Source of the DNA: Patescibacteria group bacterium
Lineage (GTDB): Bacteria; Patescibacteriota; Patescibacteriia; UBA2591; UBA6264
Direction: 5' to 3'
NCBI GenBank assembly: GCA_016784145.1
Contig: JADHVF010000001.1
Location: 159,339 to 223,338, forward strand
Length of the DNA: 64,000 nucleotides
Position numbers and translations under genes: made by a program. How positions within the stretch are numbered: position 1 is the stretch's first letter; every line of letters starts with the position of its first letter. The notes beneath the pieces were generated by a model, which saw nothing but the letters and a program-made list of their open reading frames with translations, searched no databases and had not been told where the DNA came from. Below, one piece after another: positions 15,864-27,793 of the stretch.

Positions 15864-16961
15864 ATGATAAAAAAGCAAAAAAATACCACTAAAAAGGGTC
15901 TGGGTCTGGATAAATTCGATAAACGGCTTGAACACGTCCCAGCCAGCATCATCTCGAAAATAGGACAGATCGATGAATTAAAAGGAAGATGGATTGCAGG
16001 GGCAAAATTAAGTCCTCAAGTTTTAGGTCGTCTCAAACGGTCTGTTTTGATTACATCTACTGGTGCTTCTACTCGTATTGAAGGTGCAAAACTATCTGAT
16101 AAGGATGTTGAGAAAATGATGAGAGGTATTACTATCCAGAAATTTACTGACCGAGATAAACAGGAAGTTCAAGGTTATTATGAACTTTTAGAAAATGTTT
16201 TTAATTCTTGGAAAATACTTAAACTTAACGAAGGCACTATAAAGCATTTCCACGGTGAATTGCTCAAGTATGTTGATAAAGACCAAAGACATCGAGGTGA
16301 TTATAAAAAGCAGGAAAATAAAGTCCACATGGTAAATAAAGCTGGCGAGTCTGTGGGTGTTCTTTTTGATACCACCGCCGCCTATCTTACTCCCAAAGAA
16401 ATGCAGGAATTAATTGAGTGGACTAACAATGCTTTGACCGAGAAAAAATATCACTCACTTCTTATTGTCGCTAATCTCTTAGTAGAGTTTTTAAAGATTC
16501 ATCCATTCCAAGATGGTAATGGCCGGTTTTCTCGTGTTCTGACAAATCTATTGCTTCTTAAAGAGGGCTACGAATACATGCCCTATGTATCTCATGAGAA
16601 ATTGGTTGAGGATAACAAGCCAGAATACTATATTGCTTTACGTAAAAGTCAAAAAACAATGGGTTCAAAAAAAGAGGATATTACTCCATGGCTTAAATTC
16701 TTTTTCACTATGTTAATTCAACAAGCAGAAATGGCAGAAGAGCTTTTGTCAAAAGAAAACATAGAAAAACTTTTGTCTGAAAAACAGCTGGCTGTTTGGC
16801 AGTATTTACAGGAAGTAGAAGAAGTCAGCACTGGAAAGCTTGTTAAAAAAACAAAAATTTCTCGAGCTACTGTAAAACAAGCACTCGATAGATTATTACA
16901 GTTTAAGAAAATCGAACGCATTGGTCTTGGTAGAAGCGCGAGATACCGAAAACTAAAATAA
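15864..16961 (+). CDS. fic: Fic-family protein (AMPylator) with C-terminal winged-helix domain
   Basis: Canonical Fic motif HPFQDGNGRFSR. Confidence 0.9.
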   Translation: MIKKQKNTTKKGLGLDKFDKRLEHVPASIISKIGQIDELKGRWIAGAKLSPQVLGRLKRSVLITSTGASTRIEGAKLSDKDVEKMMRGITIQKFTDRDKQEVQGYYELLENVFNSWKILKLNEGTIKHFHGELLKYVDKDQRHRGDYKKQENKVHMVNKAGESVGVLFDTTAAYLTPKEMQELIEWTNNALTEKKYHSLLIVANLLVEFLKIHPFQDGNGRFSRVLTNLLLLKEGYEYMPYVSHEKLVEDNKPEYYIALRKSQKTMGSKKEDITPWLKFFFTMLIQQAEMAEELLSKENIEKLLSEKQLAVWQYLQEVEEVSTGKLVKKTKISRATVKQALDRLLQFKKIERIGLGRSARYRKLK

Positions 16962-24715: not shown

Positions 24716-25517
24716 TTTTTAATTTAATTATAGTTATTTCAGGCGAACAATTAAACCTAATAGGCAAGGCAGCCTCTCCAATACCCTGATTAACATATAG
24801 AAACATTTTTTTGACTATAAATAATCCCCTATCATATTTGCTTCGATATATGCTTGGTATCCAAAAACTGGGCACAAATGGAATTCTCACTTGTCCACCA
24901 TGCGTATGCCCTGTCAAAATCAAATCCACTTGTTTAGATTTAATGTCTCTAAGTATTTCAGGAGAATGTGCTAAAAGTATTTTAACTGCCTGCTTGCTAA
25001 TGCCTTGGCTAGCCAATTGAAAATCGTCATGCCTGGTATGTGGGTCATCAACCCCAATCAACCAAATGGATTTATGTTTTTGCTTTAACTCCCTATTGTT
25101 ATTAATTAAAACATCTATCCCTGTTTTTTTTAATGTCTGTATAAATAAATGGACATTAATTGAGGTATTGGCATGAGAGTGATTTCCTAGTACGCAAAAA
25201 ACTTTATATTGATGTTGCTTTGCTAATCTCTGCCAAAAAGGAATAATTTCTTCCAAATGCCTTGTTTTATAATCAATAATATCTCCTGTAATAAAAATAT
25301 AATCTGGAGATATCTTTTTTAATCTTTTTAATAATTTTTTTTCTTTTCTGCCAAATCTTTTAGAATGTAAGTCACTAATTTGAACAAGTCTTGTATTAGC
25401 AAATGAATCTGGTAGATTTTTTATAGTTATTGATATTTTTTTATTTTTAAAATTATATGGCTCAAATATAAGAACATAATATAATAAAAAAAATAAAATC
25501 AATATGAATAGTATCAT
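24705..25517 (-). CDS. calcineurin-like metallophosphoesterase with N-terminal TM anchor
   Basis: GDIID and GNHSH motifs. Confidence 0.75.
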   Translation of the reverse strand: MILFILILFFLLYYVLIFEPYNFKNKKISITIKNLPDSFANTRLVQISDLHSKRFGRKEKKLLKRLKKISPDYIFITGDIIDYKTRHLEEIIPFWQRLAKQHQYKVFCVLGNHSHANTSINVHLFIQTLKKTGIDVLINNNRELKQKHKSIWLIGVDDPHTRHDDFQLASQGISKQAVKILLAHSPEILRDIKSKQVDLILTGHTHGGQVRIPFVPSFWIPSIYRSKYDRGLFIVKKMFLYVNQGIGEAALPIRFNCSPEITIIKLKNEN

Positions 25518-25555
25518 ACTTGTTTAGTTTAACAAAAATATACTATTTTATCAAG

Positions 25556-25596
25556 AAACACCCTGTAGTTTCTACAGGGTGTTTGTTTGTTTTTGC
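25556..25596. terminator. hairpin caccctgtag-tttc-tacagggtg plus T-run, overlapping the stop codon of ORF 25572..26216
   Basis: Perfect 10-bp stem. Confidence 0.5.
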
Positions 25597-26216
25597 CATG
25601 GCTTGCGTTTCTTCAAGGATTGATATTGTGGTTTGCCTTGTTCTGCAAGTTGTTGTCTGTATTTTGTTCTTTGCTTTCTATTTTTTTTCACATAAGCCAA
25701 TGCTTTTGGTGGCAACCCATAATCCCAGCTCAACCAAACTGGCTGATTATCTTTATGTTCTGATTTATTGCAACAAGACCAATAACGAGATTTTATTCCT
25801 TTTGATTTGGCAATGTTCATAAATTTATTACATTGCAAACAAATAGGTCTATGTTTAATCTTGTACATTGCAATCCAGGCCTGTCTTAAAAATGTCACCA
25901 CAAAATTCTTGGTCCTATGGATTGGATGTGAAAAATAAAGAGCATTATCTTGCTTTGAAATAACTATCCAAGCAGCATCAGACTCACGAGCTTTTTGCTC
26001 TATCATCATCCAAGTTGTCCAAGCAGTTACTTCAAGTCCATTTTTAGCAAATACAAAACCAACTTCTCTGCCTGGCCTAGAACGTGGAGCCCTTAATCTC
26101 AACCGTCTAAATGTCTGTTGAAACTCTTTAACTCCTATTTGTCTAAATCCCCATGACCTAAACTGCTGTTGCATAAACTCAAAATCACTTCTATTTGGTA
26201 ATACTTGTTTTGGCAA
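25572..26216 (-). CDS. hypothetical zinc-ribbon protein (C-x2-C...CC) with basic C-terminal tail. Local GC visibly higher than surrounding genes
   Basis: ORF of 214 aa. No recognisable family. Composition shift judged by eye (about 40% against about 28%). Confidence 0.4.
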   Translation of the reverse strand: MPKQVLPNRSDFEFMQQQFRSWGFRQIGVKEFQQTFRRLRLRAPRSRPGREVGFVFAKNGLEVTAWTTWMMIEQKARESDAAWIVISKQDNALYFSHPIHRTKNFVVTFLRQAWIAMYKIKHRPICLQCNKFMNIAKSKGIKSRYWSCCNKSEHKDNQPVWLSWDYGLPPKALAYVKKNRKQRTKYRQQLAEQGKPQYQSLKKRKPWQKQTNTL

Positions 26217-26394
26217 TTTTAGCCTCCTTTTTTAATTGTTTTCTAAAAAGAACTGTTTCCATGATAGCAAAAAAGGGCTTGTTAGTCAATCATGATGTAA
26301 CAAAAGGATATCAATTTCGTCAAAATAGATATAAGTAAAAAATATTATGAATAATAACAATCAAAAACACTATAAATGTTCTTGGAGGAATACA

Positions 26395-26517
26395 ATGATT
26401 ATGGGTAAATCCAATAATGCATACCCATTTTTATTTGTTATGGATAAAAAACAAAACTCAGGAGCATTTTTAAATTTTTGGAAAAAATTAAAGAAATTGA
26501 AAACTCGTTATTAGTAA
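26395..26517 (+). CDS. candidate 40-aa mini-ORF (MIMGKSNNAYPFLFVMDKKQNSGAFLNFWKKLKKLKTRY)
   Basis: GGAGG RBS 6 nt upstream of ATG. Followed by hairpin terminator 26543..26569. Absent from the track because it is shorter than 60 aa. Confidence 0.25.
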
Positions 26518-26539
26518 AAATTTAAAAATAAAATTAAAC

Positions 26540-26572
26540 CACCCCTGAGTCTAAAAACTCAGGGGTTTTAAA
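26540..26572 (+). terminator. hairpin cccctgagt...actcagggg-tttt in the leader of the MFS gene (candidate attenuator)
   Basis: Read directly. Ends 37 nt upstream of the MFS start codon. Confidence 0.5.
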
Positions 26573-26605
26573 TAACATAATAAACTAAAAAAAAGGAGGC
26601 CAATT

Positions 26606-27793
26606 ATGGCTAATCAAACTATCAAAACATACCTATTAATCACAGCTGCATCAGAATTGTTGATAGGATTGCATGCTGCAATCTATGTCACTTACTTAAT
26701 GAGTAATGATTTGAGCTTATTACAAGTAAGTTTAGTCAACTTTTTCTTCATGCTGTCTGTCTTTGTTCTTGAAATACCAACCGGCGCGATTGCTGATATA
26801 TTTGGAAGGAAATTTTCTTTTGTTCTTTCAAATATTATCTGTGGAGCAGGCTTTCTAGTATATAGCCTATCTGAAAGTTTCACTGGATTTGTTGCATCTG
26901 AAATCATCATAGCGTTAGGATTGGTGCTATCATCAGGAGCATTTAAGGCTTGGATGGTGGATTCCCTCAATTTTTATCAATGGGAAGGCAAGTTGATAAA
27001 TGTATTCAAGCTTGAAGGAAGAATTGGCAGCATCGCTAGTATGGCTGGTGGATTAATCGGAGCATATCTTGGCGTGCAAAACCTGGCAATGCCGTTTGCA
27101 ATTGCTGGAACAGGTTTTCTCATTTTAGCTATCACTACCTTTGCGTTAGTAAAAGAAGAATACTTTGTTCACAAGAAAAGGAAAGATATAAATCTCTGGA
27201 ATAATATCAGGCAAATCTCGAGCGCTAGCATAAAATACGGGCTAAAACACCAAGTCGTGTTCTTGATAGTTAGTGTGACAGTTGTTTTCACTCTAGGATT
27301 TCAAGCATTAAACATGTACTGGCAACCTTGGTTTACCCCTCATATCTCAGGCAGTCAATATCTTGGCTATATCTGGGTTGGCATAATTTTCTGTAAGATG
27401 CTTGGAATAGAAATGGTTGGTTATTTTGAAAAAAGAGTTCCAAATTTTAAGATAGGGTATCTTGTTATCGGAACAAGCGTTGGCACGATGATTATGTTGT
27501 CAGCCATACCTTTTCTCAAAATATCAATAATAGCCTTTATCTTACATGAAGTAATAAGAGGGTTATCACAGCCATACACAAATACAATGATTCAAGAGAA
27601 CATAACCTCGTCAGCCAATCGAGCCACCATTGATTCCTTTATTTCAATGATGAGAACTGGGGCGGCTGGAATTGGACTACTCTTAGCTGGAATCTTGTCC
27701 AATGCTTATGGAATCAGCATCACTTGGATGATATCTGGAATAATCATAATTGTATTAACGCCTGTTGCCATGATAATAAACGGCCATGACTAA
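26606..27793 (+). CDS. MFS transporter (12 TM)
   Basis: AAGGAGG RBS. Has an MFS motif between TM2 and TM3 (GAIADIFGRK). Confidence 0.8.
   Translation: MANQTIKTYLLITAASELLIGLHAAIYVTYLMSNDLSLLQVSLVNFFFMLSVFVLEIPTGAIADIFGRKFSFVLSNIICGAGFLVYSLSESFTGFVASEIIIALGLVLSSGAFKAWMVDSLNFYQWEGKLINVFKLEGRIGSIASMAGGLIGAYLGVQNLAMPFAIAGTGFLILAITTFALVKEEYFVHKKRKDINLWNNIRQISSASIKYGLKHQVVFLIVSVTVVFTLGFQALNMYWQPWFTPHISGSQYLGYIWVGIIFCKMLGIEMVGYFEKRVPNFKIGYLVIGTSVGTMIMLSAIPFLKISIIAFILHEVIRGLSQPYTNTMIQENITSSANRATIDSFISMMRTGAAGIGLLLAGILSNAYGISITWMISGIIIIVLTPVAMIINGHD

Follow-up and report, generated by a model that had tools for sequence, protein, structure and literature searches.

A basic zinc-ribbon protein family of Patescibacteria, probably encoded in its host by a resident single-gene unit

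Does a gene that stands out from its surroundings in base composition come from elsewhere, or does it belong to its chromosome? The question is raised by a minus-strand gene for a basic zinc-ribbon protein of 214 amino acids (aa) in a 64,000-nucleotide stretch of a Patescibacteria group bacterium (GenBank assembly GCA_016784145.1, contig JADHVF010000001.1, positions 159,339 to 223,338; the whole stretch is hereafter called the window). An initial annotation, made from the letters alone, had read this gene as compositionally atypical and probably horizontally acquired, with an origin in a phage, a plasmid or a defence island. Codon usage, synteny, divergence and database searches all spoke against that reading, and we consider it rather probable that the gene is a resident single-gene unit with restrained output, encoding a non-catalytic nucleic-acid binder of a Patescibacteria family.

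Composition, gene order and divergence

The window has a GC content of about 30%, and matches of RNase J and of protein names assign it to a metagenome-assembled genome of Patescibacteria. Its 51 long open reading frames (ORFs) served for the comparisons of composition, charge and Shine-Dalgarno (SD) sequences. As had been noted initially, the GC content of the gene (~0.364) was above that of its neighbours (mean of the window ORFs 0.305, standard deviation 0.028), and it stood at the 98th percentile of 645-nt windows. When windowed GC and codon usage were both checked, only the former set the gene apart: the statement that it uses G/C-ending codons did not hold, with a GC content at third codon positions (GC3) of 0.282 against 0.262 expected from the amino acids and with 72% of the codons ending in A or T, and the codon-usage likelihood was typical (z = -0.16, rank 22 of the 51 ORFs). 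Re-encoding the protein with the synonymous codon frequencies of the window, the gene itself being left out, gave an expected GC content of 0.357 from the amino acids compared to 0.365 observed. Because a composition rich in Arg, Trp, Pro, Gly and Ala predicts this value under the codon usage of the window, the GC excess is explained; it is carried by the codons of these five residues and is no mark of foreign origin. The same offset was observed throughout the family, with the GC content of the gene exceeding that of its flanks in 14 of 15 loci (the window and 13 of 14 homologue loci; mean difference +0.063) and correlating with host GC across hosts of 29-52% GC (r = 0.89). Nor is the gene the local GC maximum, which falls in the adjoining MFS transporter gene (GC 0.375).

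The search for the gene in close relatives found it at the same position in the nearest ones. The window and five loci of homologues (L012, L013, L022, L024 and L025; all loci are numbered in this way) share the order tsaB - gene - (Metallophos) - (SIMPL or MBL) - acylphosphatase - 92-aa gene - RNase J, and more distant family members lie among other housekeeping genes. The protein was 51-52% identical to its counterparts in the syntenic relatives, while the identities of its neighbours to the same relatives were 51-54% for RNase J, 47% for L10, 41-47% for tsaB and 63% for L7/L12. The best non-self database matches were at 57% identity for RNase J and 56-57% for the protein, so that the nearest relative available had an RNase J identity of ~57% and the comparison of residency reaches no closer genomes. 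These matching identities indicate that the gene has diverged in step with its housekeeping neighbours. A different arrangement, rmuC (encoding a DNA recombination protein), the gene, L21 (rplU) and a DEAD-box helicase gene, was seen in the Kaiserbacteria-like loci L004, L019 and L020, where it may reflect lineage synteny rather than a functional link.

Searches among mobile elements returned no relative of the gene: tblastn detected no homologue in 50,697 phage records or 72,556 plasmids, none was present among IMG/VR contigs, and none of 38 family members matched a PADLOC defence model at E <= 0.01. The repeats around the gene were AT-rich chance repeats, with no terminal inverted or direct repeats, and neither an integrase nor an adjacent tRNA was found around it, the nearest tRNAs being ~8 kb and ~17 kb away. 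Since codon usage, synteny, divergence, the family-wide GC offset and the lack of mobile relatives all point the same way, horizontal transfer is unsupported, and the comparisons suggest a long-resident, vertically inherited chromosomal gene rather than a recent acquisition.

Protein architecture and family

AlphaFold2 modelling with the family alignment gave one confident globule (predicted local distance difference test score, pLDDT, 87.7; predicted template modelling score, pTM, 0.84), divided into the three regions listed in Table 1. The N-terminal part of the model consists of helix 9-21, strand 25-27, helix 29-38, a four-stranded meander (51-58, 61-70, 82-88 and 91-95) and helix 105-121, and the C-terminal part of a three-stranded ribbon (134-137, 144-148 and 160-163), helix 170-192 and a flexible tail. 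The C-x2-C...CC cluster described initially was borne out in C126-x2-C129 and in C148, all invariant, with H154 nearly so; the second cysteine of the CC pair, C149, is specific to the window. The basic C-terminus was likewise confirmed, and it belongs to a protein that is basic as a whole (net charge +30, isoelectric point (pI) 10.6) and has the highest charge density per residue among the 51 window ORFs. Across the family, the mean pI was 10.7 and the mean charges of the N-terminal and C-terminal halves were +7.9 and +20.2. Conserved positions were mostly Arg, Trp, Cys, Pro and Thr (R101, T102, R123, P124, W146, W164, D165, R180 and R204), the family alignment contained no invariant set of His, Asp or Glu, and H100, the sole His conserved beyond the ribbon, gives way to R or N in some members.

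A word-indexed search yielded 38 homologues, and an exhaustive profile search extended the family to 323 clusters at 50% identity, nearly all of them 200-240 aa in length (~215 aa) and matched from end to end. The named sources of members were Patescibacteria, Paceibacterota, Zambryskibacteria and Kaiserbacteria, and the family, which is uncharacterised, has been seen almost only in Patescibacteria. Genome and metagenome scans with one strict peptide pattern returned 10 and 26 loci, respectively, numbers that are no measure of prevalence in Patescibacteria. Loci L014, L017 and L018 came from metagenome-assembled genomes labelled Gammaproteobacteria (two) or Saccharibacteria (one), which are co-assembly bins; the contigs have 34-39% GC and lengths of 3.4-3.5 kb (L014 and L017) and 37 kb (L018), and these bins are probably mis-binned or mislabelled.

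That no family could be recognised, as first reported, was upheld for the window protein, which had no Pfam, NCBIfam, PHROG or PADLOC match; NCBIfam gave nothing useful over all 38 members, and a literature search found no paper on this zinc-ribbon family. Weak similarities appeared when the 38 members were scanned against Pfam, with 23 matching Zn_ribbon_recom at E <= 1 (best E = 3.8e-5), 10 matching Zn_ribbon_IS1595 and three Zn_ribbon_Top1, and five members weakly matched the PHROG integrase family phrog_95. Foldseek against the PDB found nothing, and PDB sequence searches with the single sequence or the profile returned chance antibody matches and a non-significant match to the zinc ribbon of TiaS (E = 0.34). 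One 300-aa homologue (P0004) carries a C-terminal DUF4326 domain (E = 2.5e-27), the sole domain fusion in the Pfam annotations of the 38 members. DUF4326 belongs to a rhodanese-phosphatase clade for which a role in the processing of ADP-ribose-derived phosphates during virus-host conflicts has been proposed (PMC9503650), and we give this single fusion little weight.

The ribbon weakly resembles that of large serine recombinases (PF13408, Zn_ribbon_recom) in its succession of CxxC, an (R)YYxC-like motif and a final C/H over ~40 residues, followed by basic helical sequence of the DNA-contacting kind. It differs in that the fourth ligand is His in most members of the present family, that the helix comes after the ribbon instead of being inserted within it, and that no member contains a resolvase catalytic or Recombinase domain (PF00239 or PF07508); the N-terminal domain is an antiparallel sandwich according to the model and the structure search. 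The N-terminal ribbon of IS1595 transposases (PF12760) and the C4 zinc finger of topoisomerase I (PF01396) are of the same ribbon type, which probably explains the label "transposase-like protein" given to one member by JGI, but the family lacks a DDE or Toprim/topoisomerase domain and its gene is single-copy and syntenic. The N-terminal domain can be set beside small alpha/beta two-layer sandwiches such as frataxin/CyaY, YbjN/Tll0839 and secretion-chaperone-like proteins, and also beside toxin-immunity proteins (TriTu, CdiI) and UEV/RWD domains. By alignment and model, the protein would be a known type of zinc ribbon joined to an unassigned basic alpha/beta domain.

GIY-YIG, HNH, PD-(D/E)xK and LAGLIDADG nucleases were set aside for mismatches in topology and conservation, the invariant catalytic residues on the characteristic fold of HNH/beta-beta-alpha-Me or PD-(D/E)xK enzymes being absent. 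An IS1595-family transposase was set aside for want of a DDE match and of terminal repeats, the gene being present in one copy within the window.

Conserved signals around the gene

The interval first assigned to the gene, 25556-26216, does contain a minus-strand ORF of 214 aa, although position 25556 is the foot of a hairpin and not the end of the ORF. The public annotation (ISS06_00945, P0001) is a 200-aa protein from an internal ATG, which leaves out the part encoded by 26175-26216 on the minus strand. Because the N-terminus MPKQVLP is kept family-wide in the homologue alignment and the SD sequence is placed accordingly, the TTG at 26216, 14 residues beyond the NCBI call, is preferred, and both observations indicate that it is the true start. 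The AT-rich non-coding region 26217..26605 was confirmed (389 nt, GC 0.252), lying upstream of the gene rather than following it as had been stated, and its GC content is ordinary among the intergenic DNA of the window (range 0.09-0.36).

Upstream sequences were compared over 26 non-redundant family loci and followed a common plan: TTGACA, 17 nt, TAnnnT, ~7 nt, GTTCTTT, 15-35 A-rich nt, AAAGGAGG and the start codon. The predicted promoter of the window is the best promoter-like site in 25000-27000 (10 of 12 matches), and boxes of the form TTGACA-17-TAnnnT were also present upstream of homologues in other loci. Exact GTTCTTT occurred within 60 nt upstream of the start in nine of the 26 loci against 1.4% expected per locus (binomial P = 4e-11, and 2e-9 after collapsing related loci), near-variants were present in four or five further loci, and the motif was not enriched window-wide (23 copies compared to 18 expected). 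Besides the window, the loci with the exact motif come from divergent lineages (L006, L014, L029, L031, L038, L039, L042 and L048). AAAGGAGG was found upstream of nearly all family genes, and 18 of the 26 start codons were not ATG (TTG 16, GTG 2, ATG 8). Within the window, a full AGGAGG was present in only four of the 51 ORFs (3312, the gene, the MFS gene and L1), and a crude scan detected no recognisable SD sequence 4-13 nt from a candidate start in 37 of them. Minimum-energy folds in most loci paired UUCUUU with AAAGGA of the SD tract, and RNAalifold gave the same six pairs. Rfam searches of 25450-26700 returned no family at the gathering score, the best match, rli38, scoring 30.3 bits where 49 are required. 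GTTCTTT might act in SD occlusion, as a 5' stabiliser or as an operator.

At the other end of the gene, the perfect 10-bp hairpin that had been described over the stop codon does enclose it, and its stem is longer than described, with 13 perfect pairs. Its folding z was -4.55, with none of 200 shuffles folding as well. Hairpins occurred 3' of the homologue in all 14 other loci examined and overlapped the stop codon in the clade of the window (L012, L022 and L024) and in L001, with differing sequences. Taking the 10-bp core stem, the sense-strand tail GUUUCUUGAU is a weak U tract, and the terminator scan accepted a tail on the plus strand only; the T tails after the hairpins of homologues were clearer than that of the window. 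Because promoter-like site, leader, start codons, SD sequence and hairpins are conserved across the family loci, the gene appears to form an insulated single-gene unit in which translation initiation is deliberately restricted.

Table 1. Coordinates of the gene, its predicted domains and signals, neighbouring features and gene orders (positions in the window)
Feature	Coordinates	Strand	Details
Coding sequence	25572..26216	-	214 aa, TTG start, TAG stop; from the ORF list
N-terminal alpha/beta two-layer sandwich, predicted	25854..26216	-	residues 1-121; a-b-a-b4-a; net +12
CCCH zinc beta-ribbon, predicted	25713..25853	-	residues 122-168; C126, C129, C148, H154; RYWxC and WDYGLP motifs; from alignment, Pfam and model
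Arg/Lys-rich long helix and flexible basic tail, predicted	25575..25712	-	residues 169-214 (helix 170-192); net +13; from model and charge
Sigma-70-like promoter, predicted	26261..26289	-	-35 TTGACT, 17-nt spacer, TG-extended -10 TATCAT; consensus match only
Leader motif GTTCTTT	26247..26253	-	7 nt past the -10 box, where transcription is predicted to start or close to that point
Shine-Dalgarno AAGGAGG	26223..26229	-	6 nt before TTG; read from the sequence
Terminator-like hairpin	25556..25584	-	13-bp stem, 3-nt loop; contains the TAG stop
MFS transporter gene	26606-27793	+
Terminator-like hairpin upstream of the MFS gene	26541-26566		11 bp, then TTTT
55-aa ORF	26347-26514		precedes hairpin 26541-26566
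Fic/DOC-domain protein gene	15864-16961	+	DIP2311-like C-terminal domain
Gene order, window			L10, L7/L12, 661-aa gene, tsaB, [MFS], gene, Metallophos, MBL, acylphosphatase, 92-aa gene, RNase J
Gene order, L022			L10, L12, 684-aa gene, tsaB, gene, 87-aa gene, SIMPL, acylphosphatase, 92-aa gene, RNase J
Gene order, L012, L013, L024, L025			parts of the window/L022 arrangement

Predicted function, alternatives and neighbouring genes

The initial proposal of a zinc-ribbon and probably nucleic-acid-binding protein was upheld by the conservation of the ribbon ligands, the weak Zn_ribbon_recom matches of 23 of the 38 members and the extreme basicity, and we infer nucleic-acid binding, lack of catalysis and translational control for this gene. 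Under the reading that we favour, the product would be a non-catalytic nucleic-acid binder, for example a nucleoid-associated or regulatory factor, in which the zinc ribbon and the basic helix would grip nucleic acid and the sandwich would add a basic surface or a partner-binding face. Transcription would run from the gene's own promoter to the terminator hairpin over the stop codon, and the weak TTG start, together with a leader able to pair with the SD sequence, would keep output low, possibly with autoregulation. The unit resembles autoregulated genes for basic nucleic-acid binders, such as ribosomal-protein operons and infC, an autoregulated gene with a weak start codon, in combining a conserved 5' leader, a non-ATG start, a strong SD sequence and a basic product. 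It differs from them in that the leader has no Rfam match, a weak helix and no covariation support, and binding of the protein to its leader is hypothetical here.

Several observations weigh against this reading. The zinc-ribbon matches in Pfam are weak and do not extend to the window protein; E31, E51 and D80 are nearly invariant acidic residues, which leaves a small probability of a catalytic site. The leader forms a weak helix (-1.5 to -11 kcal/mol, z about +1.2 to -2.2, consensus energy -0.73) with almost no covariation, both of its sides being nearly invariant, and in L029 and L012 the partner of the motif is a stretch of purines upstream of the SD sequence, which is left free. DNA and RNA binding, moreover, are not separable; among the neighbours, tsaB, RNase J, DEAD helicase and L21 have to do with RNA, and RmuC, RecR and DnaB with DNA. 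The similarities seen in Pfam speak for DNA, while the charge density, the architecture of the leader and several of the neighbours would suit a role with RNA or the ribosome.

Such a role, for instance as a lineage-specific accessory factor of the ribosome or of rRNA or tRNA processing that binds the GTTCTTT leader and so represses its own mRNA in the manner of ribosomal proteins, is one that we entertain tentatively. The protein is more densely charged than ribosomal protein L1 of the same window, the conserved leader, strong SD sequence and TTG start would fit self-repression, tsaB, RNase J, L21, a DEAD helicase and AspRS are among the neighbours, and the best PDB sequence match, the non-significant one to TiaS, is to a tRNA-binding zinc ribbon; yet the Pfam likenesses are to DNA-binding ribbons, no ribosomal protein family or structure was matched, and no neighbour is conserved across lineages. 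More speculative, and of lower probability, is the notion of an unrecognised Patescibacteria-specific chromatin-like or ribosome-associated protein that would join a basic alpha/beta sandwich, a CCCH ribbon and a basic helix in a new domain combination and would repress its own translation through the GTTCTTT leader. If true, this would be a new autoregulatory protein-RNA or protein-DNA pair in a group where very few regulators are known.

The remaining readings, in which the gene is a mobile-element remnant, a nuclease or a foreign arrival, are all unlikely. The weak Zn_ribbon_recom, Zn_ribbon_IS1595 and phrog_95 matches, the JGI name of one member and the hairpins at both ends of the unit could be accounted for if the protein were the DNA-binding module of a large serine recombinase or IS1595-type transposase, since domesticated or decayed, or if the gene were still a selfish element, but the lack of recombinase and DDE domains and the single syntenic copy make this reading improbable. 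A catalytic role, for instance that of a small metal-dependent nuclease with the zinc ribbon for targeting and with E31, E51, D80 and the HRTKN loop as its active site, is harder still to credit. In its favour, E31, E51 and D80 show at least 90% conservation, R101 and T102 do not vary, the beta-hairpin and subsequent helix around HPIHRTKNF bear a superficial likeness to beta-beta-alpha-Me nucleases, and rmuC adjoins the gene in three loci, but the fold and the conservation pattern do not match the nuclease families considered. Least probable of all is a gene recently acquired from a phage, plasmid or defence island and betrayed by its composition. Raised GC, the lack of a recognised family, neighbourhoods that vary among distant lineages and the fusion of one member to DUF4326, a domain common in viruses, might be cited for it; on the other side stand the typical codon usage, the amino-acid composition that accounts for the GC content, the offset throughout the family, the syntenic position, a divergence equal to that of the housekeeping neighbours, the lack of phage, plasmid, IMG/VR or PADLOC relatives and the absence of an integrase, flanking repeats or an adjacent tRNA.

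The compositional and syntenic outlier of the neighbourhood is the MFS gene, not the zinc-ribbon gene. Oriented opposite to the latter, it exceeds every other gene of the window in GC3 (~0.358, with 0.248 expected) and has a codon-usage z of -7.7. The junction between tsaB and the zinc-ribbon gene lacks it and its upstream region in relatives, with a gap of 64-228 bp there compared to 1,666 bp in the window, and its best homologues (49-54% identity) are still Patescibacteria, e.g. Komeilibacteria; together, these observations suggest transfer within the phylum or rearrangement. A terminator-like hairpin lies 27 nt before the Shine-Dalgarno sequence of the MFS gene and is preceded by a 55-aa ORF with no family match (Table 1). 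Its 3' arm AAAACTCAGG recurs 101 nt upstream (26453-26462), making an alternative pairing possible, and the region, which has no Rfam family at the gathering score, could be a leader or attenuator of the transporter. Elsewhere in the window, the gene for a Fic/DOC-domain protein deviates strongly in codon usage (z = -6.8, GC 0.362), and a foreign origin is more plausible for it than for the zinc-ribbon gene.

Rejecting horizontal acquisition avoids a false island call and illustrates that raised GC in an AT-rich genome can stem purely from a protein rich in Arg, Trp, Pro, Gly and Ala; nothing in the findings on this gene contradicts current understanding. The family is one among many uncharacterised families of Patescibacteria, yet it is well defined, with 323 clusters, a confident fold, extreme charge and unusually conserved expression signals. 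To our knowledge, Patescibacteria have few recognisable regulators or nucleoid proteins, and a conserved nucleic-acid binder that appears to be tightly controlled is therefore a reasonable candidate for biochemistry.
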